A stretch of DNA of 63,200 nt, the filler included, from Bipalium vagum (Eukaryota): the NCBI GenBank assembly GCA_037834085.1. It is 3 parts of 3 records of this genome, joined end to end, with 100 filler letters (N's around TTAATTAATTAA, not from the genome) between each part and the next. Parts side by side here need not be neighbours in the genome. Positions count along the whole stretch, not along the records: positions 1 to 21,816 come from JBBMKC010231843.1; 2 more parts are not named here. One strand, given 5' to 3'. The notes beneath the pieces were generated by a model. The model was not told the DNA's origin. It did not search any database and saw nothing but the letters and a program-made list of their open reading frames with translations. How positions within the stretch are numbered: position 1 is the stretch's first letter; each line of letters begins with the position of its first letter. Below are positions 244-34,078 of the stretch, piece by piece. The position numbers were made by a program, and so were the translations under genes.

Positions 244-438
244 ATATCTTTCTCACAACTTTATAAAATTATGATTTAGAAAATGCAAAGGAAGAATTAA
301 ATAAATTACATGAATTGAAAATGAAAAAGAAATTTAAAGATAATTAAAATAATATATTTTTAAATGTTTTGATTCAAAATTTTAAAAATAAATAAAATAT
401 TAGAATTCCTTTGTAAATATGGAATTAGTTCAACATCG

Positions 439-1151
439 AATTTTGATTCTTGTTTTAATTATGAATTAGGCTTAGTTTATTTCTCAACTTATAACACTAT
501 TTTTAATATCAATAAAAATATTAATAATAGTATAAGTTTATGATTAAAGATAGCAAAGGTAATCAGGTTGATAATACAATATCATTACTTCCAGGTGCAT
601 ATAAAATTTCTGAGATATCTAAAACAATATAAAATGATATAAAATATAATTCGAAATTAGAGGAATTAAAAGATAAAGAATTTTATATAAAAATTAAAGC
701 ATATCCTATATCTTCAAATTGTGTGATGAAAATAAGAAAAGATTGTAAAGTTGATTTCCTATGGTCAAATCTCTTAAAACTCTATCAATTATTTTAGGAT
801 TTGAAACTGAAAAAACTTATGAAGCAGGAATTCATTATTCTATTAGTTAATATTTCTAATATAGAATTATGTTAGAAAGTAGTATTGTAGAAGAAGGATT
901 TTATAATGAAGAAACAACAGACATCGAGACAGAGTCTCTTGTTACTCGTAGTAACATCATTTATGATTTTCCTTCGAATAATGTTCCTAGAGGATATAAA
1001 ATTCTTGAAAGACCAAATTTTCCCATTTATTTTCCTTTGATAATAAAAAAATATAAATGAAATAAAATTTAAAATAATTGATAATAATAAAGAATTAATT
1101 AATTTTAATGATGATGAAATTAGTTTTAGAAGTCATTTAAAACAAGTTTGA
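439..1151 (+). pseudogene. Polinton/Maverick (adintovirus-like) minor capsid (penton) gene remnant
   Basis: Frameshifted pieces translate to NFDSCFNYELGLVYFSTYNTIFNINKN (439-520), ISLLPGAYKISEI (~580-618), SNIIYDFPSNNVPRGYKILERPNFPIYFPL (ORF 869-1060) and EIKFKIIDNNKELINFNDDEISFRSHLKQV* (~1058-1151). These match the characteristic N- and C-terminal motifs of Polinton minor capsid proteins as recalled. A packaging ATPase remnant follows immediately. Confidence 0.72.
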
Positions 1152-1248
1152 ATTAAAACAAAGTCGCATTTAAAACAAATATAAATAACAAATAACAAAT
1201 CGAAAATTAAAAAAATTATATAAAAAACATTGAAAATCTCTGTTATGA

Positions 1249-1521
1249 TTTAATCATCATTCTAATTTACCTAGAATTTTTAGAATTTTAATTATAGGTC
1301 TTTCAGGTTCAGGTAAAACAAATTTATCATATAACATGTTATTTCAAGAAAATAACTTTGATTATGATAATCTAATTATTTTATCTAAGATAACATTTAT
1401 TCAACCTGAATTGAAATACATTAGAGATTGTTTTGATTATGGTTTATCACAATCTTATTTTGATTTACCTTTAAGAAATAATGCAAATGTTTTAATATTT
1501 TTAAAAAATTTCAACAAATGA
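1249..1521 (+). pseudogene. Polinton A32/FtsK-like packaging ATPase, N-terminal remnant
   Basis: FNHHSNLPRIFRILIIGLSGSGKTNLSYNMLFQENNFDYDNLIILSK: Walker A (GxSGSGKT at 1297-1320) in the LPxxxRxLIxGxSGSGKT context typical of Polinton ATPases. Truncated before Walker B. Confidence 0.75.
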
Positions 1522-1699
1522 TATAAATCAAATTTATTCAAAAATGTTAGGAACTTTTATGGAAAAAGAAGAATTTAATTATTTATATAATTTTCATGAG
1601 AGAAAAATAAAAATATTTATTTATAAATTTAGAAGATGAAAAGATTATGTCAACAGCATTTTGATAGTTAATAAAAATGTTTTATAAAAAAATATTTAC

Positions 1700-2900
1700 T
1701 ATCATCTTTATTGTGCGTTTCATTATCATTATATTTATTTTCATTACATTCATCTTCAAAATGATGATTTTCTTTGATAATTTTTTCTAATTCATCGTCA
1801 TCAACATAAATATCAATAGCATAATAATCTTCAATATATTCATCATTAAAATCGTCACCATCAATATATTCATTTTTATTATCATTAATAATTTTATTAT
1901 CTGTATTTTTGAAAAATTCTTCTATAATACTTAATATTAAAACATTTCTTTAGTTTTTCAATAACACTAAGTTTATCATCATTTTTATTATTATAATCAT
2001 TATCATCATAATTATTATATTTATTGTTTTTCTTCTGAAAGCCATCTTTTTTAATGCTACACATATTTTTCACTAAAACGAAGATTATCATCATTATCAT
2101 TATAATCATTTTATTTATCAATTTTTTTACTACAAAAATTTTTATTATTATATAGATTTTTTTCTTTATTTCTACATGCTTTGCATTTATTTCTATTTTT
2201 ATCAAATTCATGTAAAAAATTTTTTTCTAAACAATACCTACATTTTTTATAATTGTTGTTATCTATAACAGACCAATCAAGCTTAATTTTATTCTTTGTT
2301 TTAAATTCTTTTTTTATTTCTTCATTTATAAAACTTTGATATAAGTAAGACTTCGTTTCTATTTCTTTACATAAAGCTTCATTCTTTCATTTTGTGCATT
2401 TTAAACACTATTAGCACAATTTTTAATATGAAAAGTTTTGCAATAATTTTTTCCTGGATAAAATTCATCAAAATTCTTTATTTAAAAAAGTTTATTAAAT
2501 TGTTTTCTTTATTAGATACTTGTATATTTTTAAATTGATTTTTCATTTTACTTTTCAAAATAGTATAATGTTGTAGAGTTACATTATTTAATCCTTAATT
2601 ATATGCATTCTTAATAATTATTTAAATAAGTGTATAAAGATTTACATTTTTATTAACAATAAAAATATTATAAAATGATATATAATTTTCAAAGTTAGGA
2701 CATTTATTAAACGTCTGAAACTCAAACATTTGTGTTGCTTGATTATAAGAATTTGGTATGAAATCAAGTCTTGACATCTCAATAGAACAATCAATATTTT
2801 GATTTATTTCATCTAAAACAAGAATTAAATTAAATTGAAAATCTATTTTATTTTTTATTAATTTAACGTTATTATGTAAAGAATATTCATTCATCAATAT
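1700..2900 (-). pseudogene. Degenerate CxxC-repeat/acidic ORF, probably a Polinton accessory gene
   Basis: KKCRYCLEKNFLHEFDKNRNKCKACRNKE (~2250-2165), a second decayed unit EFDEFYPGKNYCKT (~2480-2435) and a D/E-rich tail. It lies next to the Polinton ATPase and carries many frameshifts. Confidence 0.4.
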
Positions 2901-3139
2901 TTGTATTTGGATTCACCATTTTTTGAAAAAAAATGTGACTTTGTTTATACTTAGTTTTCTACTTTTTAAATTTTATTTTTAAATTTATTTTTAAAATTTA
3001 TTTTTATTTTTACATAAAAAATTAATATAAAAAAATATTATAAAAAGTATTAAATTTTTACTTTTTTTATCCTTTTTTACAAAAAAACCTACATAAGGTA
3101 TTCTAAAAAACATGCAAAAAATATAATTATTTTTTTATT

Positions 3140-3475: not shown

Positions 3476-3982
3476 CTTTTCGTAATTATATAATTTTCGT
3501 TAGCCAGATGTAATTTGATAGCTCAATAACCTATAAGATCTTCGGTGATTTGTTCCTCAAAAATATACAGTCACTATAATCACCAGTTTAATAATTCAAA
3601 AAGTCACTGGAGCTCTTCATTTGAGAATTGACTTTGTAGCAATACAGTAGCTCTGTTATAGGCAAAAAGAAGGAGAATTTATCCATTTTTCATTACCCTA
3701 AATGTACAGGTCCGTAATTGATTTATTCCCAAAGCCCTTTAGAGGCAAAAGCGATAATTAATATTTTTCTGCTACTGAAGAAGAATGAAAAATAATCTTT
3801 TTTAAAGCAGCAAAATAAAATAAAATTAAAAAAAAAATATTATTATTATTGTGAGGCAAATATTAAGTAGTTGTTTAAGAAAATAATTTAATTCTTAGAA
3901 TAATTAAATTATTTTAAAAAATGACTTGTTTATATAATTGATTTGTAATAAAATACACATTTTGAAAAGCGTCTTGATTTAT

Positions 3983-4715
3983 ACAGGGTCTTCCAAAAGA
4001 AGCTTTACTACTTTAAGTCACTATTTCTCCGTACATAAAAATTAAAAAGTCAAGTAATTTTATTTATACCTTTATTTAAACACAGATATAACAAAAGTTT
4101 ATATTTTAAATATGATGTTTTAAATGACCACACCTGGCAGCCCTACAAGTTTGGGCTATTTTTATGGAATTTTGTATAACTTTTTGGCATAAGTCAATTG
4201 AGATCATAGCAATTTGTTCCGAAATGTTGTCTTTCAGTTGTGTAATAGTTTTTAGTTGATTAATATAAACTTTATCTTTTAGATATCCCCATAAGAAATA
4301 GTCTGGAGCCGTCAAATCGGGAGATCAGGGAGGCCAGTCAACATCACCGAAACGTGAGATCACGCCAGATGGAAAAGTTTCGTGTAATAATGCAATTGTT
4401 TTCCTGTTTTTATGGGATGTGGCACCATCTTGCTGCAAGTAAATATTCTCCAAATTAAAATCATTCAGATAAGGCTTAAGGAATGTTTCTATCATATGTC
4501 GATATCTCTCTCCCGTTACTGTAACTGTTTTACCTGCAGCATTTTCGAAAAAGTATGGACCAATTACACCCCTTGCCCATATTCCACACCATACTTTGGC
4601 GAATGTAATGCTTCTTCCTTCAAAACATAGGGTTGCTTTGTTGCCCAAATTCCACAATTTTGTTTATTAAAAACACCTTCACTCAAGTGAAAATGTCTTT
4701 CATTAGTCATAATGA
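3983..4715 (-). mobile_element. Tc1/mariner maT (DD37D, DUF4817-type) transposon remnant, 3' half
   Basis: IMTNERHFHLSEGVFNKQNC, VWCGIWARGVIGPYFFE, QQDGATSH and WPP*SPDLTAPDYFLWGYLKDKVY. TIR-like TACAGGGT at 3983. Stops and frameshifts. Confidence 0.88.
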
Positions 4716-4867
4716 TTTTTTTCCAAAAATATTAAAACATTCAAATAATTTTATTGATAAACATAAAATAATACACAAAACTGAACGAATTTTTAAAGTG
4801 AAAAATATTTTTTAGAAATTATTATTAAACTGAAGCAAAATCTTTTGAAAAATCTAATAGTAACAAA

Positions 4868-5851
4868 TTATTTGACCTTAATTTGATCTTGATTGTTACT
4901 TTCTGCAGTTCTAAATTTTATCTGTCTAATTCTCTCCGCTGAGAATGAGCTTTTTCCATAAATACCATATTCTTTCATAGCTTCCTCAGAGTTCATATTT
5001 GTTAATCCTTTCGTATTATATTTTAGGAAATGAGATGGAGTAGACCTTGAGAACTGATATGGCCATTTCGGCAAAGGAAAGGTAGCTGGTTTGATATGGC
5101 GAGGCCATGAAAAAGGAAAATCAGAAGTGTGATCTCGATTATCCATATTAGGATTAAGAAATAAATAATTATCCCAGTGTTTATATAAATGATAAACCTT
5201 GTTTCTCTGAGTCCTAATTTCATATTCATTTAATGCTTTATCTACTAAAAGATGATCAGGACCACAACAAGTAATTGCCCGATATGGACCCTTTCCTTTA
5301 TATAAGAATATATCTGACATATGAAAATGAACTTTATATTTGTGAGTTAGTGCCATTAAAAAACGACTATGTGGAAAAGGACCTAATGTTTTGAAAAAAT
5401 TATAAAACGGTTTTGTTTGAGGATAGCCGTTTTGATCACACCATTTAACGAAATCACTTTCAGAAAGTTTTTGTAAATTCAGTTCATAGAAACCGAGAAA
5501 TTGTCTACGAATAGAATCGCAATCTAATACAAAAACCAACCGGAACCACATACCAATTTGTTCATCAAAAAATATACCCATGGTGTATTTGTAATCAAAC
5601 TCATTCTGGTAGCCCATTAATGTTTTTTTTTTATTTTTATTTTTTTTTCGTAAAACCTTATTACGTTTTAGTTTCAGTTTATCAAATATTTTTGAACCTC
5701 CAGAGAGGGTATCGCTCTCATAACTTCCGCTACTTGTGAAATCGGATCCACGGCTTTTAAAAACAAGTTGATCTCCAGAATAAGTAGCCCTGTCAGAAAA
5801 ATTAGCCATAAAGTCGGCTTCTCTTCTTATTTTTCCAAAGCATCCTCCCAT
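4868..5851 (-). CDS. Intronless 327-aa uncharacterized protein with N-terminal MGGC acylation motif, polybasic stretch and possible degenerate KH-like fold
   Basis: 984-nt uninterrupted ORF in very AT-rich DNA. The ORF-track start at 5905 is TTG; the first ATG is at 5851 (gaaATGg context). AATAAA lies on the minus strand at 4755-4750. No transposase or RT motifs. Confidence 0.75.
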   Translation of the reverse strand: MGGCFGKIRREADFMANFSDRATYSGDQLVFKSRGSDFTSSGSYESDTLSGGSKIFDKLKLKRNKVLRKKNKNKKKTLMGYQNEFDYKYTMGIFFDEQIGMWFRLVFVLDCDSIRRQFLGFYELNLQKLSESDFVKWCDQNGYPQTKPFYNFFKTLGPFPHSRFLMALTHKYKVHFHMSDIFLYKGKGPYRAITCCGPDHLLVDKALNEYEIRTQRNKVYHLYKHWDNYLFLNPNMDNRDHTSDFPFSWPRHIKPATFPLPKWPYQFSRSTPSHFLKYNTKGLTNMNSEEAMKEYGIYGKSSFSAERIRQIKFRTAESNNQDQIKVK

Positions 5852-6030
5852 TTCGATTGATATTACATTATTGAGATATGGGGTAATTATATACGTCCAG
5901 CACAATTCATCATCAACCAGTTTTAGTTAAATTAAATTACGGTTAAAAATTCAATAATAAATCAATTTGATGATCAATAACTGCATTCAAGAAAGTTATT
6001 ACATAAAAGAAAACTATTAATGACATAGAG

Positions 6031-6800
6031 CAGGAATGTCAAAATCAGAGTCCCGCGAGGGCCGTAGGAATCAGTTTGTGGTGTCATGAGGGCCACAATG
6101 TGTACAATATAATTTAAGTCGTTAAATAAAAATTATTGCAGAATATTTTTCTTTTATTGGAAATTTAAAAACATGCATTGTTTGGTCGTATTCAAGAATG
6201 TAGACACGAAAGTGCATGTAGTTTAACAAAAATATACAAAGGAAATTAACATGAGATATAAATTTGTTATTTTTTTTAATGTAACGAAAATTTAAAAGGC
6301 AACATAAATGGTCTGCATGTATATGAATACAACATCAACAAGTGCAATGCGAATAAATTACAATAATTCAAAATGGACATTTATTATCAAGTATTTAAAT
6401 ATTTTTCATGTTTGTCCTGACGCTTGACACATCTTGTTCTTGACAATCTTTAATATGTCTGGCTGAAATTTCTGTGTAGTGCCGAGTTTTACGAAAGATG
6501 ACAAGTGATTATCAGTCGACTTAGTTCTCTGAGAAGTTGTTAATTTCATGAAGGAAAATAATTGTTAAATAGTTGGAGCCGAGAATTGCCACAATCCATG
6601 CGGAAAACTTTCTGAAGTTTATAAACCTTTTCGGAAGGTATGGAAAGAAATCGGGTATTCAAACTTCAAAATACTTTGCTTTGAGTAAAGAATCTGACTG
6701 CATTTCTAATAGTTCCGTTTGCAGGCTTTCTTATGCCATGGTAACATCAAATGTAAGCGGCGACGAGAATAACGCAAGCCGATGTTCAAAATATGATTAA
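6031..6800 (-). mobile_element. hAT (SPIN/GTF2IRD2-like) transposon 3' remnant
   Basis: LQTELLEMQSDSLLKAKYF...ILGSNY / QLFSFMKLTTSQRTKSTDNHLSSFVKLGTTQKFQPDILKIVKNKMCQASGQT* matches the hAT dimerization C-terminus (FGSTYxCEQxFS...RSRLTDxHL). Terminus-like CAGGAATGTCAAA...CCCGCGAGGGCCG at 6031-6064. Confidence 0.8.
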
Positions 6801-7148
6801 TCACGATTTTTTTTTAAAGTCCTTTGACAATAATTCCAGGTGACTGTCATACTTGATAAAGCTTATTGCAGACTTAGTATTAGTACTGTTTTTCAGCTCT
6901 TTGTATGTAGGAAAATGAATTAAATTTTCATCAAGACATGTGATTTCCATAATTTCAACTTAGTAATGAAGCATTTGACGTTATCATACAACTTTTAAAC
7001 CATTTTTTATTGTTGATTTACTAATCCAAATTTACTAATCAAATAATTGCCGAAAATTTTTACATTGGTAATCAATATATTAAATTTTATAAATATATTA
7101 ATTTTATACTTAAGTTCTTTTATAAAAACCAAAATATTAGTCTTCAAA

Positions 7149-8426
7149 ATGAGTGATGAAAAATTGTACGTTTGGTGTTGCATAAGATATGAATTTGATC
7201 AAATTGAAAATGCATCCCAAGCATTTAAATCAATGTGTTCCGTTCTTGGTAATAATGCCATTTCCCGCAGTACATGTAAACATTGGTATCGTCTATTCAA
7301 AGACGGAAATTTTGATGTCACTGATCGACCACGTAGTGGTGCTCCACAGATATTGGAATCAGCCAAATTGAAAGACCTGTTGAATGGAAATACAGCCGAG
7401 ACGCAAGCAGAACTCGCTCAACAACTTGCCGTTGATCAAAGAACTGTTGGGAGACGGTTACACGACATGGAAAAAATTCAGAAGGAAGGAAAGTGGATTC
7501 TGCACGAACTTTCTGAAACCAATATTTTATGCCGATTAACAACATGGGTAACCCTTATTGCTTGACAAATACAAAAAGACTTTTTATGGAAAATCTTCAC
7601 CAGAGATTAAAAATGGATTAATTACAATAATCAAAAACACAAACATTTTTGGGTGGACCCTGGAATGCCAGCTACTACAGTTGTAAAAAAAAATATTCAC
7701 AATAAAAAGTACTCTTTTGCATCTGGTGGGATATGAAAGGACCCATTCATTATGACCTCCTCCAAACTGGTGAAATCATTAATGCGGAGCGTTATAGCAA
7801 ACAATTTCTGCATTTGGCTAAACAAATTGAGAAAAAAGACCTTTTTTCGGGCAAGGATCGGGTAAGATTGTCCAGCTACATGACAATGCTAGACCGCATG
7901 TAGCAAAACATGCTCAGGAAACAATTTTACAGTTAGGTTGGGAAGTTCTTCCTCATACGGCTTATTCTCCAGACCTTGCTCCTACAGATTTTCATTTGTT
8001 TCGTTCAATGCAACATGGATTATCCGGATGTCGTTTCAAAAATGTTGACCAGATACGAGATTTTGTCAAGAATTATCTTGCGTCAAAACCAATATCTTTC
8101 TATCGTTCCGGGATTCGCCAATTACCTGAAAGATGGCAAAAAGTGATTTCCAATAAAGGATATTATTTTGATTACTGATTTTTTGAATTCCTGTCGTATA
8201 AAAATTAATATATAACCTTTTTAATATTACAATCATTACTTGTGGTCCTGAAGAGAACTGTTACCTTATTAATAAATTAAAGAATTAATTAATACCCTAC
8301 AAAATAATTAATCATCTTTAAAACAATTATAAATAGTCTATTAAAATAAAACGGAGAAAACTTAATTTAATTCATTTTCAGAAATAATTTTTGAAAATCC
8401 GCAATTTCATACTGGACAACCTAATA
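7149..8426 (+). mobile_element. mariner (DD34D) transposon, near full-length, degenerate
   Basis: ATG at 7149. WYRLFKDGNFDVTDRPRSGAP, GKWILHEL (WVPHEL), TRD*KWINYNN, HDNARPHVA, YSPDLAPTDFHLFRSMQ and GIRQLPERWQKVISNKGYYFDY* (8178). Mariner-type TIR GCAATTTCATACTGGACAACCTAATA at 8401-8426. Confidence 0.92.
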
Positions 8427-9482
8427 TTATTTAATAATTGTAAACTTCTTTAATAATCGAAATACGATCATAGTAAAGTAAAATAAAATGAAAATTGTCT
8501 TTTCAAAATCAAAATGAGAATGCAACAAGTAAAATGAAAATTAAAAATGAGTAAAAAGAGAAAATGGAAAAATTAAATAAGTGAAATACATTACATTTTT
8601 AAATTTTAAAAATGGATGCAAAACAAAATATAATTATTTTGTCAAAAATAATTTGAAACTAATGAATTAAATTAATGGAAGGTAAGAAAATGATTATAAC
8701 AAGATTTAACCATATTACACAAACCTGTTACCAATTTTCTAATCTCAAAGACTGATAAATTAGAAAATCAAAAAGATAAAGATAAAAACCAAAGATAATT
8801 CTAATCGAATTAAAGATGAAGCTATAGAAATGGTTAATGAAAAATTAAATACTTTATTTGATGAAAAAGTTTTAGAAAATAACCCCCTGTATATAAGGAT
8901 GATTATTATAAAAGAATATTTGTTCTTAAAAAAGATATAAAATGCTAAAACGATAAGATCATCAGTTCAGAACTATTTTAAAATTAAATAAGACAAATAT
9001 TACAATTACAAATGACAAGAATGAATTATATTTAGAAAGAATTAAAATGAACAAACGATTTGACAAATAGTTATGATGGAAATTATATATGTAATTAAAT
9101 CTTAAATTATTAAGATTTAATTACATATGTAAAGGGTAGTTTGATTGCTAACCTTTATTGAAAAAATTTAAAAAAACAATGAGATAAGTTAATATCAGAA
9201 ATAAATTATAGAATTAATAAACCCAAACATATACTTGATCTGACTCTATCACCTGCAATTAGTTGTATCAATTTTAAAAAGCTGGTCATGATAATCTTGA
9301 TCATTTAATTTAAAAAATTTTAATAAGTTAAAAACGCAAAAAAAAAACACTTATGATTACTATGAAAATATTAAAGTTAAAATTGATCTAGATTCTGATT
9401 AAAAAATTTATTATAAAATGAAAGCATCTTTACAAAAAATATCAAGTCTTTTATCTCAATAATTTTCAACATTTATCAAGAA

Positions 9483-9600
9483 TCAGATATAACATTAATG
9501 TTTGAAACACCACTAAATTTTGATCCAAATTTTAATTACGAATTAGCTTTAATTTATTTTTCAACATATCATTCTCATTAAAATATTACTGAAAAATAGA
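9483..9600 (+). pseudogene. Second Polinton minor-capsid (penton) 5' remnant
   Basis: SDITLMFETPLNFDPNFNYELALIYFSTYHSH*NITEK, clearly paralogous to NFDSCFNYELGLVYFSTYNTIFNI at 439-520. Confidence 0.65.
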
Positions 9601-12600
9601 TATAGAAATTAGAAAAAAATAAAATAGAAAATTTTTATGATAAATAGATTTAACAACAAAAAGTGTGATTATTAAGAAACATTTTTAATTCCTGCAATAA
9701 TAACAAATTTAAGTAAAAATGGAAATCTAACTTTTTCTTTACTACAATCATCAAATGTGTGAGTATTTAGAATTATCAGAAGCAATTATAGTTTTCAAAA
9801 TTGAAATTTAAGGTATAAAAGCAGATGAAAATATAACTTTACAAAAAAATTTATTTCTTTATTTGTTTTCTAGTGTAACTTTAAAATTAGATTCATAGAC
9901 CGCATAGAATTAAAGATTATTTCTTATCCACAACACCTGTAGTCAGAGATAGCCCAATAATTCTTAGTTTTCAGATTTCTAACCGGAACATCTTCAGAAC
10001 TTTTTGTTAGTAAAAAAAGAACTTTTCTCAACCGACATAGCTTTGGTGGCATTAATTTAAGCAAAGAATATGGACAATAAAGAACATGTGTATTTAATAA
10101 AATAATTCTAAGATCTGTGTTATTTAAAGAGAAGTCTTAACTTTATCGTACTTTTCGTATCTCAGCGAATCGCTCAAATAACCCCTTTTAGTATTGTTCA
10201 TTTTCCATATTTTTTGTAATGGATTATTATCTTATATTTTTCTATCCATTATTAATTTTCGAAAATTTTATTTCAACTTGATATTATTGGGTTAAATTCT
10301 AATTAATTTTAAAACAAAAATAAAAATATTTTAAACTTATTTTTCCTGCTTGTCAAAATTCCCTGTAACCGGAAATCCGGTAAATTTCCTTTCAATCGTT
10401 AATTTGAAAAAAAATATTTTTTATTAATAAAATCACGAAGAGTTTGAATGTAGAGAACGAAAACGAACTTTATTTTCTGACTTTTGATAAACTTTTAATT
10501 GTCTTCTACAAGACATTTTTAAGATTTAAAGAAAATATTAAAAAATAATATTTATATATGTAAAAAGAACAACCCAATAAAACTTTACTGGAGAATGATG
10601 AGTTTCAAATAAACAAAAAACATACTGGAAATTGATTATATTTATTATCATTTATCACATCTCTCACGTAAATGCATCTGGAAAATAAACCATAAATAAA
10701 TGATACGCATTCAATCAATCATAAAATTAAAAAAACAAAATCAAACATCAACAAATTTGTTGTTTTTTTTTAAAAGAAATCAATATCACATCATAATAAT
10801 TAAAAAAATCAATATAGTAGGCTAGTAAACAAGTTATCTTGATTAAGAAAATATTATTTATAACAATTATTAAATAGAACTATAATAAAATATTTCCTAA
10901 ATATAATGAAGTCTAAGGCATGAAAACAAATTCAATATAATTGCACCAAGATTTTAAAATAAACATTTCAATAATATATTTTATATAATGGTCGCTATTC
11001 TGTCAATGAGTATGCTGCCTAAGATTCGTCAATTTCTGAGACAAATGTAACTGTATGAAACGGAAGCAATAATATTACCTGAAACAGGAGAAAAAATGTT
11101 GGGAGTCATTTTTAAGGAGCTACCATTGTTGTATTGATGTCTCATTGAATGGAGCATATCAAGGAAATCGTTAGACTAAAATTATTGAACCATGGACAAT
11201 TAATGAACTCTTCATCATATTTTAAAAATTTTACATTTTCATTTTATACAAAGCATAACATAAGATAAATATAAAATCTGTTGTTCAATTCATCATCGTT
11301 AGTTTTTTTAAAAAAAATACAAACAATAAACTTTTTAACTTCAACTAATGGACTCCGGGATACCTTACCAAAAACAAATTCCTAGGGAAAAATATATCGA
11401 ATAATCTCGAATTTAAATCTCTGGACACATAAACATAATCATGTGAAAGGGTTTCTTTGTTAACTTGTGATGAAAAAAAAGATAATATTGACTAAAATAT
11501 TTATTTTATCTTTTATTTATTGATAAATGATAATTTAGGAAAAATGAAAAATATAATTGATTGATTTTAGAAATATTTTTAACAAATAGATTGAAAATAT
11601 AATATATTGATAGACGGCACAGACTTAAGATTGGAAAATTGCGCAATCAAATATAATAATGGGTACCCTGATTAAAATAATTAAATAATAATGCCGGCAC
11701 TGTATTATGGTCGAGTAAATTTCGAAAAGAAATAAATAATGGGCGCATATTTTATATTTTCGGAAGATTTAAGAATATTACTGAAAATAAAATTATATTA
11801 TTATATTATTATACATCAGTTAGTTAACACTGAGATTTTAAAATAGATATTTTAACTTTGATCTCCTTTATTGTTCTAATGAATAATTTTTGCACTCGGC
11901 ATTGCCTAAATCGTAAGTAAAAGAAATAAAGTCAACAAAAACGTCTCAATTTCAACATTTATTGAACACTTAGTTTAACACATAAACTTCATTCAAAATC
12001 AACTACTTCAAGCTACCATCAATTAACATTTCTCGACAAAAACCAAAGACCTTCTTCTCGTGATGCAAGAATCGGTTCTGCTAAATTCTGTAATATTCTC
12101 TAAATTCGGATATGGGGACAGTGATCTTGTTATCTGAATTCTGAAACTGGACCTAAATCAATTTCATAATTCAGACATAGAACGACTTCCCTTCTCGAGC
12201 TGCCTCAATTCTCTTCGGGCGTTACTGAACACATTTACAACTTGTGTTTATATAGTATTAATTAATTAAAATAATCAATAAAAGAAAAAGTGCATTAGAA
12301 AATTTTTCGACATAAATAATAATTATAAAATGGGTTTGGAAAAATTTTCCTAATTATTTTCCCGACTTCATAATTTGCCTCAAACGATGATATTATTTTC
12401 AAACTATTTCAAAGTTGTAAGAATCTTTTCCCTATCTAAATCTTCTTGATGTCATTCTATAAAATTAAGATCACCGAAAGAAATAAGTTTTAAAATATTC
12501 AATCTCCGTTTTCTGTTTCGATTTTCAGTTATTTCTTTATTGCTTTCGGGAAAAGGTTAAAATAATATCACTTCTACCTTTAAAATAGAATAATTAATTT

Positions 12601-12854: not shown

Positions 12855-13810
12855 TATAAGGGGTACAAAAAAATAATGCTGATTTATTTAAAATATATTT
12901 ATTTCAAATATAAATAAAGACATATCGAAATATAATTGTGAATTGAAATATAAATCAATTTGTTTGAATAATATCTAATCAATAGGACAGTCATTTAAAT
13001 TTTCATAATATGTTAATAATTTCAAAATTTTTAGATCTAAATATTTCAATATTTACGCCAAGCAAAGAACACTTGCGGGAGGTTCTCATTCATTACTACA
13101 TGATGAACAAAAAAACTGACGCAGAAAACTGCAGGATATTATTCGATGTTTATCGAAAATGAGTAGTACAGAAAACACAAAAGAAAATCTTTCTTCCATC
13201 GACTATTGACAGGAGATGAAAAGTGGATCTATTTTGAAAATCTCAAACGTAGAAAAGCATGGGTTAACCCAGGTCAACCACCAGCTGCAAGAGCAGAAGA
13301 AAACAATGCTCTGCGTCTGCTGGGTCAGCAAGGCGTGGTTTACCATGAGCTTCTCAAACTAGTTGAAAGAGTTAATTCGGAGAGATACCAAAACCAAATA
13401 GCGCAGCTAAATCAGTCTTTAATAGTTAAACATCTGAAATGTCTCAATAAATATGGCTAAGTATTCGTCTACATGAAAACGTAACGCCTCACACTTCTAA
13501 AGCAGTTAAAAGACATGAAATGGGAAGTACTCACGAGATCTTGCTTCTTCCGATTTTCACCTATTTCGTTTAATGGCAGATGAACTTGCTGAGCTGCACT
13601 TCAAATCGTACGAAGATGTCCAAAATTGGGTCTCTGAAAGGTTCGTCTCGAAACCAGAAAAGTTCTTTTGGGATGGCATCCATAAATTGACTGAAAGATG
13701 GAAGAAAGGTGTGAATAACAATGGCTATTATTTTGAATAATTTTTTTTGTTTCGAAATTACCATATTTCGGTTATTAAAAAAATCCGCATTATTTATTCG
13801 TACAAAAATA
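12855..13810 (+). mobile_element. mariner (Mos1/mauritiana-like) internally deleted element with both TIRs
   Basis: TIR cores GTACAAAAAAATAATGCTGATTT (12863-12885) and the reverse complement of 13781-13803, GTACGAATAAATAATGCGGATTT. Protein pieces: PSKEHLREVLIHYY, TGDEKWIYFEN, DLASSDFHLF, GIHKLTERWKKGVNNNGYYFE*. Confidence 0.88.
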
Positions 13811-14189: not shown

Positions 14190-15447
14190 GTAATTAGATT
14201 TTTAAGTTCAGTAATATTTTTAATTCTTCTACCAATGTACACCTTAGACTTTGTGAATCCCCAAACATAAAAATCTATAGTTTGTAAATCTGGAGAGCGT
14301 GTCGCCCATAATTGTGGTCCACCATGACCAATCCAGCGATTAAGAGACGATCATTGCATAATGACAAGGTGCTATATCCTACCGAAACACAACTGAGTCA
14401 AGAATGCCATCTGCAAGTAGTAGCTCTACGAAATTTTGAACCATCTCCATATATACAGCTCCTGTAACCGTATCACCTGGAAAGAAGTAAGATTAATAAA
14501 TTTTCTTTTTTGTCATTCCCATCCAAACATTCACTTTCGGTGAATCTGATTTTCAAGAAATTCATTTGGCTTTTCGAATCCCCAAATGTGACAATTATGG
14601 TGGTTAACTTTTTCACAAGTGTGGAAGGTTGCCTCTTCACTGAAGTAAATTTGCATCTTTAATTTGATCTATCAGCTCTGCACACATAATCGCTCTCTTA
14701 GAGTAATCCTCCTCTTGTAAATGATCAAAAAGTTTAATATGATAGGTATTAGCCGCAGCAATTTCTTCGTCAATTTAAATCTTTTCAAAACGTTTCAAAA
14801 TATATATTTAAACAAAAACATTTCAGAGATTAAATTAACGTAGTAACGTAAATTAATTAAAGTAGGATTTTTTTCAAAACAATTTGCAGGATTCATAGAA
14901 TGACAGATATGGAAGTTCTAACAAATTTCCAGCCTTACGAACCGATAAGTGAGATTCTTGCTGAAAGTTATCGCTAATCATTTCACACCTTTTATTAGAT
15001 TTTCTTTGACAGATATTATTAACAGATCCAGTTCTCTGAAATATCATTACCAACTCACACATAGTTTTATCTGTTGGCCCATTTTTAAGATTTGTTTTCA
15101 AATTAATTTCTTATTTTTTCGCATTTTACTCCTTTTATTCTTTATGTAACTACCAATACTCGTTCTTCCGTGTTTATTTTCAATAAATGGAACTAAACTA
15201 AAACAATCAATAAAAATATTTAACTCTTTGATTAAATATATAAGGTTTTGAACATTTTTCGCGTTATTTACTATTTTGCATATAATTTTATATAAAGTAT
15301 CGATATATCGTGACTTTTGACGCATTTTCTGAAAATAAAACTTGTTTTTCAAAATTTTAAATATCTTTTGAAAAAGTGAATTTTGAAAAATTCTGTATAT
15401 TTTGCTGAGCTCCGTAATGGAACACTTACTTTATATACACCTTGTAT
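14190..15447 (-). mobile_element. maT/DD37D (DUF4817-type) transposon remnant
   Basis: FQRTGSV, FSEEATFHTCEKVNHHNCHIWG, SPKVNVW, FFPGDTVTGAVYMEM and WATRSPDLQTIDFYVWGFTKSKVY. TIR-like TACAAGGTGT at ~15446-15437 on the minus strand. Confidence 0.8.
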
Positions 15448-20155: not shown

Positions 20156-21807
20156 TTAACACAAGAAACCCGGGAAAAATGAACTACCTACAAACACGAA
20201 GCGCGTCAATTGACGTTTTACATTAATTTCTATTTCAAAGCACATCCTTTGCATTTTTAATTGAACATTTTTCCACAAATCGCTTTTTTTGCACATCTGA
20301 CATCGATCTGTTGTTCTATTTCTGCATTTAATTGTTGCACATGTGCGCCTTTTCTTCGTTTCAGATGGACCGGAGTCATCGTCATTATTGTCCTTTGGGT
20401 TTTTATCTAATGGAGAATGTCCTGTGAGGTCTTCACAAACTTTATGGATAAACTGTCGACGAGAAATTGTACTTCTGCACACGCTTGTATAAGCTATTCA
20501 AGCATTTATCAGGGAGAAGTCGAAAACATTATAAAAAACATGCATTGGTCATCTTCTACTACTAGCTCTTGTGGAATATGTCCCTGATATTTGATCAATG
20601 ACATCAACTCCAAATTTTTTCTTGTTATAAAATAAAATAGTTTCGGGTTTTTTCTTAGGATTAGATACCCTTGGAATAATGATATCAGGATGTACGGTGC
20701 TCAAAATGGCAACATATTTGGTTGTTTGCACTGATATGACGTTAAAGTTATATGATTCGATGTTTCGATTATTAATGTATCATGAAGAGGTCTTTTTACC
20801 TTTTTTAATTCAGCCAATTCTCTTCTATTTAAATGAATTGTACCAACAATGCTAGTTTTTTTCAGCAGTAAATTTTGAGCAAGATTCAAGGTAAAGTAAT
20901 TGTCACAAATGACGTTATATCCTCGGTTAGCAAAGGGACTCGTTAATTTTAGTACAGCATCAGTGGGGAAAAGATGGTGATCTTGTTTCATATTTGCCTA
21001 GGTATGGAAAGCCATTGCATAAATATTTGCTTTCAACATCAATAGCAAGCCAAAATTTTAATCCAAATTTATCAGACTTTTTTGACATATATTGGATAAA
21101 TTTACACCTAGCCTTACAAGGTAATAACTGCTCGTCAATTGTAATATTCTCATGAGGAATATAAGCTTTTTGAGTTTTCTATAAATGAATTCCATTGGTT
21201 AGAAACTAAACAAAACTTATCTGTTTCCAAATTCTTTCTCCTTTCACTTTTGAGATCAAATCGTAGATTTTTCATTATATCTGAAAATTTATCACGTGTC
21301 ATAGCTTTGTTAAATAGTTGACGCCCACAAGATTTATCACACATATTTCTTCCTCAAATTACTCCTCTAGCAATAATAGAACCAATTAATTTGTCTAAAT
21401 CATCCAATGTTATTGTCAATATTAACCCTTTGAGCTTCCTCAATTGTACATTTTAGAATATTTCGCATCATTGCTTCACTGAATAATAACCGGAATGCTG
21501 AAATATGACTTCCTTCTTTTATTCTCGTTGAGCAATATGAAGTCGGACTCGGGTTGAAGTACTTCAAATTTTGGAATTTTTTCTTTCCCAGAGTTGCTAC
21601 ATCTGCCTCCAACAAATGCCATTGGGTGCCCTCTTTACTCTTCATGGATCTTGGAGTTTCCAGATCATTGTCCTCATTGCTTGACTGGTTTGATTCACTT
21701 GAAATAGAAATGATTTCATAATCATCCATTTCAAAATCCTTGTCACGGTCATCATCAGATTGGTCAGATGGAATATCTCTCAATTTCTGTATTGCGTTCG
21801 AAAACAT
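20156..21807 (-). mobile_element. piggyBac (PGBD-type) transposase pseudogene, truncated by scaffold end
   Basis: Acidic N-terminus, MTRDKFSDIMKNLRFD, TIDEQLLPCKARCKFIQYMSKKSDKFGLKFW, CDNYFT, YNKKKFGVDVIDQ and a C-terminal Cys-rich CATIKCRNRTTDRCQMCKK. Several frameshifts. Confidence 0.92.
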
Positions 21808-26300: not shown

Positions 26301-29300
26301 CGATTTCTTCCTTTATTAATTTGTCTGTAGAACGAAAAAGAATGTTTCAATAACGAAAAATGAAATTTGCATTTCCTTAATTGAAATCCATAAAAAAGTA
26401 ATTGTTAAAATAAAAGAATATTAATTTTTAATTATTTTATTTTTAAGTGATTGATTACTTTACTATGAAAAATGTTGAACTTATTTTTAAATAAATCAAT
26501 GAATATATTATCGAGTTGTTTTTTATTTTTATTGATTTTATGAATTTTTTATTATTATTGTAGTTTTTCATTATTGATCTATTCAATTATTGATAAAAGA
26601 TGTGCAAATTAGTCATAATATCACCAGTTGTTTGAGGTCAGCTTGATTATTGAATTTAAGCCAATTAGATCGGAAGATTTTTAACATTTATACTTTCAAC
26701 CTGTCTGTCAATATTGTAGCAATATTTTTCTCTGTGAATTTTTTTTACATCACCAATTCTGGTGCAACTGAATTACTTTGTCAAAAAAGCCTTTCCATCA
26801 TAATAAGGTTGCACTTCTTTTCCATTTTCACTTGATATCGATTCTCAAGTAAATATATCACATCAGCTTTAAGCACTCATTTTTTGATTGTTTAAATCAG
26901 TTTTATTTTTGAAAAGACGATGGTTTTTGGTGCCGGGAATAATCCTGATGAGGAGTTCCGTGCAGTATTTTTTGACAGAGGTGGTCACTCAGCAAAAGGT
27001 GACACGTAACGACTTCTGAGGTCAACTAAATTTCAGCTGTTCTTTCTGTTGTACATTGATTTTTCGTTTATTGATTTTTCAAAATGATAGCCTTTTCTAT
27101 TTTACTATTATTGATTTTTTATTTAATAATTTTCTTTCTCTTATTGACGATAAAATATTGACATTTCAATCTAAAAAAGCTATACAACTCTGGCATTATA
27201 ATAATAGTGTTTTATTTAGAATTCGATCAATACTCGTTTTTAATTTTGATTTTCATTATTTGTGAATCAAATTGTGAAATATCAATTTTTCTGTAATCTG
27301 TGGTTTTGGCTTTTGATCAGATAACGATTATTTGAAAAATGTAGAAAAACTTTCATTTATTTATTTTCAATTTTACCGTTAAAAGTTAATTGATTTAATT
27401 ATTGATTTATTTTAGTTTCCATTCTTATATTTGATATTTTTTATCGATATTTTTACCTCAGTTGAGTCCGTCGCAATTTTCAATTTTTCTTCATCTGCAC
27501 CCCGACAAACATCGATAATGTGGGCTTATTTCAAAATGAAATGGAAAACTTTTAATCAATTGGTCTGATAAAAATGAACAATTGATTAAAATATTAGATT
27601 TTACCCTTATTGTCTTTCCGTCCAAAAAATAAACTGAATCGACAATTTTCAGACACGAAATATTTTAATAGATATGCAAAACAATAATGTCTCATTTTTT
27701 CACGTAATTATCCTAGGTACTTGTCTTCCTTCAGATTTCTCATTAGTCTTCAGACTATGACGTGAAAAAGACATTTTATTTCTTAAACTTTCTAAAGATT
27801 TGATGCAATGGTTATTTATTACTTCTTGGTCCACGGAGTTCTTCATCTTTTGTTGACATGATCTCATTCACATTTTATAATTTTTTCTCCAAACTGAAAA
27901 AAATCATTTAAAATACATTAGATATCATTTAACAAATTTACTTTTAAAGGTCAATATTTATGAATTCAAATCAGTTTTTAGTATTTTCCATTAATTATAT
28001 TCGTTATTGATTTAAAATTATGTAAATTCTATGACAATACTGTTTCACCTTTACAATTATTATTGATTTTTAAATTAAAAGTGCCTATCAGATCTTGATT
28101 TTTCACGCCAGCTCATTGGTTGGATATTATTATCTTTATTATTGTGAAAAATACGTTATCACAATGAAAATGATCATCAAATCTGTAAAATGCAAATTGC
28201 AAGAGCTTACAATCAATACACAAAGTGCTTGGTTACAACGTGACAATGGGCCGCACTTGATTCACTGAGAGCGTGTTCAGGCTCACAAGACACTCAAGAT
28301 AGAAACAGTGAATTATTGTCTGAGTGCTGGGCTAATAATTGTCCCAAAACTCAAATTTCATTTCTCTAATTACCACCTGTTCCCATGTCCACGGTTGCGC
28401 TTTGATATCATATGACAAACAATTAGCTTTCACTCTCATCATAATTCGCTTATCGGCGGCTTTCTTTGATTTCTGAAGACAAAAAGTTCTTTTTTCCACT
28501 GATTATTTCAAATTGGTTTTCAGATAAAAATCAATAATTTCGTTTTTGTTTCTAACCTTTTCGGAATGAAATAAAAATTCCGTTGATCAAAGGACAAATA
28601 AGTTTGGTTTATTTATTTAAATTTTGTCAAAAATTGAAAATCAGTGCGATAAAGTAAAAAGAATCGACAATATGAAGATTTTGAGATCATTCTATACTCT
28701 AGACTTCAATATTTCTCAGGATCCCTTCCGCAAAAGTTGTTTCTGATTTCCACACGTTTTACCAACATTGTGGGTTTTCTCTCACGACTTCACCCTCATT
28801 TCTTTTTCACTTTTTCTCTTATGATATTTAAAACATTAAAACCAAAAAGATAAAAAAGAAAATTGAATTTACTGTTTTGCAACACAGATAAACGATGGCT
28901 CAACATACCTCACGATCCAAACGCAGCCAAACGGCGGTGCCAACGAACTCAACGGAGCCAAGCTGCTGAACACTCCCATCATAATCCAAAGTTCGCCGAC
29001 AATACCTATCCAAACTACTCAATACCAGCAGCAGTCAACGTCGGCGATCAACGTCCAGCCGAACGCCGCCAATCCAGTAACCTCACTGACGTCCAGTCAG
29101 CTGCAGAGTCTGTCGTATTTGATGCAGACCCAAATTACACCTCAATTTATCCAGACCTCGAACGGGCTGATCCAGATTATTCCCCACGGCTTGATCGCAA
29201 CACAAAACTCCAACAACCAATTGCAGAATCACAATCAAGATCAATTGGTGACATCTCAGCTGACAGCTTTGCCGACTTTGGGTTGGTCTCTCAACAATTT

Positions 29301-32300
29301 CAACACCGCCAACAATCAAATAACCATCGATAATCAGGTTGGTGTCGGTTGGCTGGTTTGGTTTGGTTTGTGTTCTTTTATTTGGAACAAAGATGATATA
29401 TATTGATTTTATTTCATCAATGGATTAATTTCACCGTCACTGATTCGTGTCATTGTCCATAAATTATTATTATCATTGACACAATGAAATCGATATGGAG
29501 TCGTTGGTAGTTCAGGTTTCGTTGTGTTCAGAGTGACAGAGGACATTTTTCAAAAATTCTAACTTGATTACACTTTTTGATTGATTTTTTTTGAAAAAAC
29601 TATCAATTTAAATAACATCGATATTTTGTTAGAAAATTATTAATGGATTATTATTGATTTATTATTGGTTGATAAATTTTAGTGTTGTGAATTTTTTTAT
29701 TCATTCTTTTTACCTATAACTCGAATGAACATAGGTTTCTTAAAAATATAGCTAAAGTCGATGTCGGTATTTTTCACGTCATACCATACAGCTCTAAGAG
29801 AGATAACGTATCAGGGGAACGATCGGCTAAACTATAATATATTAAGCAATATGTGAAATCGACAATTGGTGAAGAAGTGAGGGAAAGGAAGGAGGTAGGA
29901 GGTCGATGAAGGTCGTTTGTGAATTTTTTTAAAAATAATTAATTAACATCATTCTTGATGATCAATTGATTATGTTCAATTTTTTTGGGAGTTAAATATT
30001 CTGAAACTCCAATGAATAGTGAAATGATATGATGGTGGTATTGGTAAATATGTTTTGTGGGCGTCATATCGATTGAGAATTTGGTGGCACCATAAGCAGC
30101 GTCAGCAGAAAAAATGTAGGCTGAGAAGAAAAGGGGAGGAGATGAGGAAGTGTTATTGGTATTTTGGGGCTCACATTACTGTCCACAGTTTCTTTTCTGT
30201 ACATCATTATCGTCATCATTTTTATTATTGACAACCGAATATTGATTGATGACAACTGAAAGTAAAACATAATGTGCTGTAAAATCGAAAAAAATCAGAT
30301 TAGCGATCGACGGTACTGTGTGCGGGATGCTTTTATCTGACTTAAACGTGATCGATACGGTCAGAAATCGATTTTCTCAGCTAATGTGAATCACTGTATG
30401 TCGTCGTCGTTGTCATCGTTGGTGTTGCTTGACTGTGGTGATTAATTGTGTGTGCGTGTATGATGTACTAAAATTAGATTTAAAAATTACGATTTGTGAT
30501 ATATGTTGTGAGAGAGAGAGATAATGTCATAATTTGTCTCGCTTCTCTTCCTTCTTCCTTTCTCTTTTGTGTAACACATTGATATTTTTTATCACAACGT
30601 TATGGTGCACTCATTATCAACAAAACCCCGCCCTCTTTCAAAGTCAATGAGCTTGTGCGATCACATTTCTGAGTTAGAATTTTGTTTGTCCTGTTTTTTT
30701 AATGTGAAGGAGATACCACGATGGTAATCAACATTTCATTGACAGAAAAAGAAAACAGCACCGATGGCGGTTTCTCTATTGTGTGATTTTTTGCTGAACA
30801 GTTTAATAAATTCTTCAATATTGATAAATAATGACAATGCGAATATGATTTTTTTATTTCCATTCATTTTTTATCGATCATTTTTATTTGTATTTATTAT
30901 TATTATTTAAAATTAAAAATTCAAATCATTTTCAACCAAATTACGCTGTTGGTTAGTGATAAATTTATCTCAATTGATCAATAATTCGAATTTTTTAACG
31001 GTCTCAAATTTATTATTCATTGGTTTAAATTTGATTAAAAAATTTTCACATGAAATTCCTTGTCCTTCTCTTATCTCCGTGTACTTTCTCCATGTTCCAA
31101 TTTAAGGTTAATTTTAAAATTTATTTTTGCTTTGTTTTATTAAATCAATAGTTATGGAATAAGCAATAAGTAATTCACGTGGTTTTTTAAAATGAATCGT
31201 TATTCCATTGAACCGCGGGTGTCAAGGCGACTTGGTTGATAAAAGTTGAGATTTAGTACTCTTGAGAAGAATTTATCGATTTTAATAAAATATCGATAAA
31301 AGTTGTAAAACATCACATTGACTTTTATTTCTATTGTTCTAATATTAAGTTTTAATATTGTTATTGTATTGATTTCTTAAAAATAATATTTGACATTGAA
31401 AGAAGTATTGTTCATTATTCTCAGTTTTATTTTGAATTGAGTTTTTGAATCTATTTTTAAGTTACATATTTTGTGCCATATATCGATAACTGTCTTATAA
31501 TTTATTTAAAGATCTGCAGAATTTCAGGTTGTTTTTTTCTTAGTATGAATCATTAAATATTATAGCACTGTTGCTATGGTGACAGAAGTTTGTATTATAC
31601 TCAGCATAACCATCATATGAGTTGCTTGTTTTTTCAATTGTCTTTTTAAAGCTAATTTCATCATAAAAAATGACCAATGTTCAGTGATGTTCTGAAAATT
31701 TCACCAATTACCTGAGTAGTAATATAAACATTTTCCTTCTATTCTTTAAAAACATGTTTCTTTCGATTATTAATTAAAAATAACATTCTTAAAAAATTGA
31801 TTTTCTGTTTTCCTCTTAGGTTTGTGGTGGAGTGCTTGTTTACATAATCGATTTAAGTTTCGATACAATTTTCAAATAATTTTTTATCATTAAATTTTTA
31901 TTGGTTGAAATGAGTTTCAGTAAACAATCAATCGATAATTGTAATTATTTGGAGAGGAATTTTTAAAAATTCGTTTTTTCTACTAATAATTTTGGTCGAT
32001 ATGATAAAAATTTGGAAGAAAGAACACAAAACGGAGGTGATAAAGGGTGAACAACGAATTTTTGTTGAAATATGCTGGTTTTTTGTATATAATATACTGT
32101 GCCAATCACCTTGAAATCTATTTCTATTTATATGAATTATTTGTCGGTATTTTTAAGTTTCGATAATTTTGTTCCGACTGGTCGACCGAAATCATAGTAG
32201 AAAATAAATTGATAATCTTAATTTTACAAAATTTGAAGTCGATTTTAAAATACAGATTTTATTGTGTCTATGGTTCAGAATTGATTAAATTAATGAGTTT

Positions 32301-34078
32301 TTGTATCATGTCACGAAGCTTTTAATAGGAAAGTCATACTATATCTAAACATTTCAATAATAAAATATGATTAAAATTTAAATAAAATCAATCAATTTTA
32401 GATAAAGAATTAAAAATTTCATGTTTAATTGCGACTTATTTGTTATTGTATAACGAATAAATATTTTTCTAATAAAATCCCGGTGTTTTATAGTGTTTAC
32501 ACCAGAAATCTTAATAAAAATCAATTTAATTACAAGTAACAATTTCATAATTAAATATAACAAGTCAATTATTTTTTTACTATTATATAAACAATCAATA
32601 ATAATAAAATTAATAAACAATTGAAATTTAAATGAAAGTTTTGAAATTGATTTTTTATTTTATCATTACTATCATCAACCATTATTCAGATTCACCAGAT
32701 CCAACTGAATAATCTCGGCATACCCCAACTGATACCATTGCAACAAATAATCCAGCCATCCAATTCGTTTTTCAATCACCAGAACGATGATCAAAACCAA
32801 ATTGTATCGACCATTGTCGATTTGAACACTAGTGAAAAGAAATCTATAGACACCGGTGCAGTGAATAATGGTAACAATATTAACAGCAACAAAAAGGGAT
32901 CTCGTCGGAAAAGAAAGCCGACAAACAAAATTGGAATGGTGGTGGAATCGTCTCAGCTGTCCAGTCCGTTGGCTAATCACCACCCAACCAGTACCAATGA
33001 GGTGATGAAGGAAGTGGCCGAGAGCAGCAGCAGCAACATCAATAACGGCATGATGAGTTCCAACATCCTCAATGGCCTTAGCAACAGTCTTGGCGACACC
33101 AATGCTACGACAACCGCCTCTGGAACCGTCGCAACCAATAACACTCTGTTTGACAACAAAGGCCGCCCGTTCAGCTTTCTGTGCCCTGAATGTCCGAAGA
33201 AGTTCACTCTCAATTCTCGTCTGAACGCTCATATGAGATGTCACACGGGTATGCGTCCATTCACGTGCAACGTGTGTGCCTTTTCGTTCACGCAGAAGAG
33301 CTATCTGATTCGTCATGCCGCTGTCCACAAGGAAGAGCGACCGTTCCATTGCGAAAAATGCCAAAAGAGCTACAAGCACTACGGATCGTTGGCCAATCAC
33401 CGCAAATTGCACCGGAAGGACGAGAAGAACGAGACAGAAATAATCATCGTCGGCAACGATTTGAAATTGGAATCTTCGGTCGTGCAATCGTCATACAACG
33501 GTAGCTCAAAATCATCATCGATTGTTATTGGCGGTAACGGTTCACATAACAACAATGGGAACGAATACGGAGTCGTTGTAGCCAATAATCAAAACTTTGA
33601 AACAAACAAAATAATCGTGTCCCAAGAAATCGATGATGTCAATCACGGTTTCACCATCACTTCATCATCGGTTCATTCGACAACTGGGAGTGTTGGTAAC
33701 AGTAACGGTGGCGGAAGTAGTGGTTATATTAAAGATTTGGATCTCTATCCGATAACGCTGTCTCAACAGTTGACAGACAACAACGTTGTCGTCGTTGATA
33801 ACGGCAGTCACCAGTCGTCTGGCAACGTTTTTTTCCAAACGGCGCAGTCCCAACTCCTCGACCAATCGTATAGCAGCAGTAAATCCAATTATGTTTCCAA
33901 TAGCAACACCAATGGTAACAACAATGGTGGAGGAAATGGAAACATGTTGGAACTGTCTAGCTCTGCTGTTACCGCCAATCGTCACAATGATCATCATCAG
34001 AATTCAAACGAGGTCGTGTCGTCGGTTCATCAAATATTTTCAAACAATGAAAATCTTCGCTCATCTTATATTATTTGA
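23378..34078 (+). CDS. Triple C2H2 zinc-finger transcription factor with Q/N/S-rich low-complexity regions (~676 aa, 3 coding exons)
   Basis: Exons 23378-23569 (GTG|gtaag), 28888-29337 (acacag|ATA...CAG|gttggt) and 32690-34078 (ttcag|ATT; an in-frame alternative acceptor gives a start at 32699). All are phase 0 and open. Fingers CPECPKKF..H..H, CNVCAFSF..H..H and CEKCQKSY..H..H, with TGMRPF and KEERPF linkers. The last exon is certain; the joining of upstream exons is inferred. Confidence 0.85.

Follow-up and report, generated by a model that had tools for sequence, protein, structure and literature searches.

A conserved Bipalium vagum gene predicted to encode a myristoylated protein with a KH-like core split by a helical insert

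Introduction

In type-I KH domains, helices 1 and 2 are joined by a GxxG loop (PMC13586276), which holds the RNA backbone (PMC13586276; bioRxiv 10.1101/2024.12.23.630104). In these two reports, the GxxG-less KH domains of N4BP1 and KHNYN are described as neither binding RNA nor depending on it and as actual or proposed protein-contact sites. As regards membrane attachment, two further papers state that an MG start is required for myristoylation yet is only a moderate predictor of it, and that double acylation is predictive of membrane location (PMC4200515, PMC7373427), with examples of dually acylated proteins from Toxoplasma (PMC7373427). Here we describe an open reading frame (ORF), whose product is termed P0001, in a stretch of 63,200 nucleotides (hereafter, the window) from Bipalium vagum (GCA_037834085.1). 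It is composed of three scaffolds, and the ORF lies on the first of them (1-21816). P0001 combines a predicted acylation signal with a KH-like core that appears to be interrupted at the place of the GxxG loop.

Results and discussion

The ORF is intact and has relatives in flukes

P0001 consists of 327 amino acids (aa) and is encoded on the minus strand by an ATG-to-stop ORF (5851->4868) uninterrupted by introns. That the ORF is intact and intronless had been claimed when it was originally picked out from the sequence (hereafter, the original prediction). The expected number of frames of this length on the first scaffold by chance is about 1e-8, and each of the other five frames across the ORF contains 17-42 stops. 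The ORF had also been called the sole long intact one on this scaffold; among the three ATG-started ORFs of at least 120 aa it is the only non-transposase one, where a 135-aa ORF was counted as a transposase piece solely by its position beside a piggyBac-type Pfam match. Because the ATG has G at +4 and a purine at -3, no in-frame ATG occurs upstream of it, and the closest upstream AG is 131 nt off, the ORF is unlike an internal exon. A TATA-like word ca. 42 nt 5' of the ATG and an AATAAA 113 nt 3' of the stop codon, within the adjoining transposase relic, are weak signals in DNA so rich in AT. In run X1, a single contig spans 4667-6145 at a depth of 22.6 with 2 letters different; X1 is possibly the source of the assembly and hence does not provide independent support.

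P0001 gave no match in Pfam, NCBIfam or PHROGs, and no match was obtained in word-seeded searches using P0001 alone among near-length and longer proteins, or in the prokaryote genomes searched for relatives. A phmmer search against 1.84 billion representatives matched two proteins: P0002, which is unnamed and has 212 aa (E 6e-31, 37% over residues 81-237 of P0001), and P0003 of Echinostoma caproni (VDP73349.1, E 6e-5). A profile of P0001-P0003 added P0004 of Fasciola gigantica (FGIG_07016), and the cluster of P0004 contributed P0005 of F. hepatica (D915_000422). In a control with a profile of P0003-P0005 alone, P0001 scored 38.6 bits and P0002 29.1 bits, while the top score among 4000 shuffles and 2 reversals was 9.6 bits. 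Since these scores lie far above those of the shuffles, the P0001 gene is not an orphan. The original prediction of an orphan thus gives way to a family with four relatives, and a lineage-specific origin in the narrow sense falls with it, trematode relatives being among them. Further flatworm genera were absent from the matches of the profile search, which was limited to proteins sharing five-residue words. We have very little doubt that P0001 is a real conserved protein-coding gene.

The fluke proteins P0003-P0005 are true kin of P0001 over the core and share with it a similar length (304-308 aa), the MG start and the layout; they differ in lacking the Cys near the N-terminus and the basic patch and in having a longer loop between strand 2 and strand 3. 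P0002, whose first residue corresponds roughly to Met79 of P0001, is possibly an incomplete gene model. The UniRef name of P0003 is 'RGS domain-containing', which is likely an automatic error because no RGS domain is found in it by Pfam.

The core is predicted to adopt a KH-like fold

The elements of the structural model lie at residues 101-109, 111-122, 161-172, 175-184, 187-197 and 200-216, and their order, strand-helix-helix-strand-strand-helix, is that of a type-I KH domain; the insert contributes two more helices. Structural matches to the core were mostly KH domains with middling Z, covering 65-69 of 71-74 target residues at an rmsd (root-mean-square deviation) of 1.8-2.5 and 7-15% identity. 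At the level of prediction, these observations uphold the split-KH arrangement proposed originally, whose quoted KH-like segments are found in P0001. The second part of the core contains the invariant residues R163, L165, D180, R191, G197 and A206. In a region aligned by MAFFT only, G197 and A206 are invariant in all five proteins and occupy what we take to be the KH C-terminal signature places, namely a Gly after the last strand and an Ala in the last helix. The core thus probably has a type-I KH fold interrupted by an insert of two helices, as judged from the model. Model confidence was low for residues 218-247, and the alignment-based model stops before the remainder of the tail; a single-sequence AlphaFold2 model of P0001 (pLDDT 31) was not used. 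The best ESM Atlas scores (0.78 and 0.80) were regarded as leads only; EF-hand proteins were among the matches.

P0001 could instead be a real myristoylated flatworm protein with another or a new alpha/beta core, whose likeness to KH is due to a widespread arrangement or to artefacts in a model built on a shallow alignment. This explanation is rather unlikely; the element order is not ferredoxin-like, the KH matches extend over nearly the whole target domains, and the two invariant residues appear to fall where a KH domain would have them. No Pfam KH family matched P0001-P0005 or the core alone in searches whose HMMER filters drop weak matches and in which the insert splits the domain, and GxxG between helix 1 and helix 2 is not present in any of the five proteins. 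Because both GxxG and the Pfam match fail, P0001 was not classed as a canonical KH member.

A conserved insert, predicted to be helical, takes the place of GxxG

The insert has a length of 38-40 residues in 5/5 proteins, and its residues L124, F134, W137, C138, T146 and F153 are invariant. Residues 122-153 carry 7 of the 16 invariant alignment columns (one of the 16, at the first Gly, being artefactual), and the BLAST and HMM matches between P0001 and the flukes are centred on the insert. This concentration of invariant columns and matches indicates that the insert probably has a functional or structural role and is not a loop that is simply tolerated. In Pfam, the insert matched only Ish1 at E 0.11. 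By eye it may resemble the C-terminal half of a SAM/Pointed domain; SAM domains were absent from the match lists of the fold searches, and a SAM-like insert is conceivable. By analogy with the degenerate KH domains of N4BP1 and KHNYN, the surface of the insert may well serve protein binding.

The same features can be read in another way: P0001 would be a membrane-tethered RNA binder that anchors mRNA or ribonucleoprotein (RNP) particles, with the basic patch, the insert and helix 2 acting in lieu of GxxG. The KH-like predicted fold, the invariance of R115, R163, R191 and aromatic residues, and the charge of the patch (+12) are consistent with this, and a precedent for a membrane-held KH protein is PAPI with its N-terminal transmembrane helix (PMC3854531). 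However, GxxG is lost throughout the family, the insert is neutral in P0001 and acidic in the flukes (net -3 to -5), the basic patch is unconserved, and the published GxxG-less KH domains reportedly do not bind RNA. We consider RNA binding doubtful on balance. It is similarly doubtful that this is a flatworm-restricted family in which a KH domain was rebuilt by a helical hairpin placed in its GxxG loop, gained a lipid anchor and uses the new surface to keep RNA or RNP at membranes; if true, P0001 would localise RNA through an acyl anchor and recognise it in a way undescribed for KH domains.

The N-terminus carries a predicted acylation signal

The MGGCFGK start and the basic patch noted in the original prediction are both present (Table 1). 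The myristoylation pattern, namely Gly2, a small residue 6, no forbidden residue 3 and no Pro7, occurs in P0001, P0003, P0004 and P0005, and not in P0002. Random draws from the residues of P0001 gave this pattern, combined with Cys and a basic residue at position 7, at a frequency of 1.6e-4. Of the 1131 stretches of the window that start with ATG, only that of P0001, which holds 5 Cys in total, has this combination. Judging from this motif, Gly2 of P0001 is very probably myristoylated. The N-termini of P0003-P0005 have Ser6 and Arg7 and no Cys within residues 2-12. Because they are unalignable to that of P0001 and the flukes are kin to each other, the motif amounts to two independent cases.

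The best 20-residue window in the relatives has a net charge of +3 to +6, and the polybasic patch is not present there. This patch may be a second membrane signal, a nuclear signal or a nucleic-acid contact. Of the membrane-targeting code originally proposed, the myristoyl motif type recurs in three fluke relatives, while Cys4 and the patch occur in P0001 only; the complete three-part code is thus not shared by the family. No transmembrane stretch was found in P0001 (maximum 19-residue hydropathy, 1.23).

Proposed mechanism

Taking these observations together, we give about an even chance to P0001 being a myristoylated, peripheral membrane adaptor whose KH-like core with a helical insert binds a partner protein, not RNA. 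After removal of Met, Gly2 would be myristoylated, and palmitoylation of Cys4 together with the basic patch would reinforce the anchor in Bipalium vagum only. A flexible linker of 100-130 residues would keep the globular core away from the membrane, and the core would fold as a type-I KH domain interrupted by the two-helix insert. The insert would abolish the phosphate-binding loop and provide a binding surface. As the RNA-gripping loop is replaced by a conserved insert, a protein partner, not RNA, is likely to be tethered to the membrane.

In a literature search with subscription papers and supplements outside its scope, no description of P0001-P0005, no myristoylated KH protein and no KH domain in which a helical module occupies the GxxG loop were found; fluke proteome tables may list the genes. 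The known losses of GxxG in KH domains are mutated or shortened loops, from which a whole inserted helical module would differ. For genes of liver and intestinal flukes that have no annotation, the adaptor proposal is a first hypothesis on structure and role in the cell. The case also illustrates that a gene left without matches by Pfam, PDB and word-seeded searches is not necessarily an orphan; it can belong to an old family whose common fold is disguised.

Genomic surroundings and origin of the gene

The ORF lies between transposon relics, of which the downstream one starts ca. 70-100 nt from the stop codon and the upstream one stops ca. 180 nt before the ATG. In the downstream relic, 41 positions separate the second and third catalytic Asp. 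This spacing (DD41D) is presumably of the rosa/Visitor type, the maT family having DD37D; accordingly, the original maT call is replaced here. For the upstream relic, the earlier hAT call holds in a reading by eye and has no Pfam match behind it.

Such surroundings raise the question of whether P0001 is a young retrocopy of an intron-bearing parent, perhaps unexpressed and open through youth, not selection. The intronless frame, the closeness of the relics, and a GC content at third codon positions (GC3) of 0.24, at the low end relative to the 0.28-0.60 of seven stretches of host exons on the remaining scaffolds, agree with this. Nevertheless, a young copy implies a parent of >80% identity. 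No second copy of the ORF at >80% likeness was seen in run X1, because the depth bins over 5010-5813 stay at 22.6-26.1 with one contig, as against hundreds to tens of thousands over the flanking relics. Moreover, the neighbouring relics are decayed while the frame of P0001 is open, and no clear poly(A) run was seen 3' of the stop codon, where the flanks are overlaid by transposon relics. A retrocopy is thus highly improbable, and the retrogene family suggested originally is left unsupported, with no parent seen above 80% likeness.

P0001 might also belong to a transposon or a Polinton-like virus, or be a relative of AEBP2/Jing without zinc fingers. Polinton-like relics flank the region; the top PDB sequence match was the SUZ12-binding C-terminal part of AEBP2 (E 0.24-0.55, residues 164-236), and a K/R-rich patch precedes the matched part, as it does in AEBP2 (PMC9255955, PMC7000746). 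On the other hand, Pfam, PHROGs, NCBIfam, viral contigs and BFVD gave no confident match to a transposon or viral ORF, a check on which the original prediction had made its claim depend. The GC content of the ORF is 33%, as compared with 17-18% in a Polinton-like relic; the ORF lies on one contig, and its relatives are annotated fluke genes. AEBP2 was not among the 50 matches listed in the fold searches, and Pfam detected in P0001 none of the three zinc fingers expected before the KR patch in AEBP2/Jing. The AEBP2 lead was rejected, as it did not recur with P0002, P0003, P0004 or two profiles at E 10. We give hardly any credence to these origins. A metagenome locus, L001 (tblastn 1e-5; 4797-5984), was a false positive that reads by eye as a bacterial nucleotide-sugar dehydrogenase-like ORF; it lies in a bacterial sugar-nucleotide biosynthesis cluster of ca. 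25% GC.

Other features of the window

The Polinton-like relics and a Med15_M-like fragment on the first scaffold had not been reported in the original prediction. Capsid-like pieces occur in the former, as does a piece (1249-1518) like a P-loop packaging ATPase, and both relics share an 80-nt repeat (439-518 and 9516-9595); a Pfam scan of four pieces gave no match. The latter may be an exon or pseudogene piece of Mediator subunit 15. On the other parts, the WD40 gene reads like what we take to be LIS1, and the LYR-family exon is presumably NDUFA6-like. The GC3 of the second-scaffold host genes in Table 1 is 0.37-0.60, far above the genome GC of 27%, and that of the other exons is 0.28-0.29.

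Table 1 Positions of P0001, its predicted parts and other features in the window
Feature	Position	Strand	Basis or remarks
Intact coding sequence of P0001, 327 aa	4868..5851	-	ORF call, X1 contig span, 4 relatives
MGGCFGK, residues 1-7: predicted N-myristoylation signal (Gly2), candidate palmitoylation site (Cys4)	5831..5851	-	PROSITE-type pattern
Ser/Gly-rich linker, residues 8-57, likely disordered, unalignable to relatives	5681..5830	-	Sequence, alignment A2
Polybasic patch, residues 58-77, net charge +12	5621..5680	-	
Core part 1 (strand 1, helix 1), residues 101-122; invariant L109, R115, Y122	5486..5551	-	Predicted
38-residue insert, residues 123-160, two predicted helices (131-140, 144-155) replacing GxxG loop	5372..5485	-	
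Core part 2 (helix 2, strands 2 and 3, helix 3), residues 161-216	5204..5371	-	Predicted
Aromatic, Pro-rich tail, residues 217-327	4871..5203	-	217-237 alignable to P0002
Polinton/adintovirus-like decayed relics (two)	244-3000 and ~8500-9950		By eye; GC 17-23%
Broken Tc1/mariner-superfamily transposase relic, DD41D spacing	3980..4800 (ends approximate)	-	Spacing count; many X1 contigs here
Broken hAT-like (SPIN-type) relic	6020..6900 (ends approximate)	-	Six-frame reading by eye; repeated in X1
Broken mariner, DD34D spacing	7050-8390	+	Lies beyond hAT-like relic
Second broken mariner copy	13050-13740	+	
Med15_M-like fragment (Pfam, E 2e-5)	15101-15430	-	GC3 0.20, amid transposon debris
Broken piggyBac-type transposase (DDE_Tnp_1_7, E 3.5e-9)	20159-21807	-	
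Gln/Asn-rich exon, host gene, second scaffold	28854-29403	+	
Three-finger C2H2 protein, host gene, second scaffold	32651-34078	+	
WD40 gene with insert of ~35 residues, host gene, second scaffold	36756-39995	-	
Protein-primed B-family DNA polymerase fragment (DNA_pol_B_2, E 2.6e-6), Polinton-like relic	43281-43784	-	
LYR-family complex I subunit exon	44809-45090	+	
MFS transporter exon	47394-47684	-	
Broken non-LTR retrotransposon (RVT_1, E 6e-12)	55677-57179	+	

Comparison with known systems

Src-family SH4 regions and G-alpha-i belong to dually acylated peripheral membrane proteins. P0001 resembles them in having Gly2, a Cys among the first residues and a basic residue 7; it differs in its large basic patch 55 residues downstream and in having no kinase or GTPase domain, while its fluke relatives are missing both the Cys and the basic patch. 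With respect to the core, P0001 departs from canonical type-I KH domains (ASCC1, Nova KH3, FUBP1, PCBP, IGF2BP) in lacking GxxG, in its 7-15% identity and in the absence of a Pfam match. In N4BP1 and KHNYN, the loop carries mutations or is reduced to a proline kink, and the KH domains stand in tandem beside a nuclease (PDB 6q3v, 9hts; PMC13586276; bioRxiv 10.1101/2024.12.23.630104). P0001, in contrast, has one domain with a helical insert of 38-40 residues, bears a lipid signal at its N-terminus and contains no enzyme domain. PAPI/TDRKH is similar to P0001 in that it contains KH and is held at the membrane by its N-terminus, and some of its orthologs have no GxxG in KH1; the cited paper describes a transmembrane-helix anchor on mitochondria and two KH domains with a Tudor domain (PMC3854531). 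P0001 differs from PAPI/TDRKH in its predicted acyl anchor, its one split KH-like domain without Tudor and the absence of a sequence link between the two.
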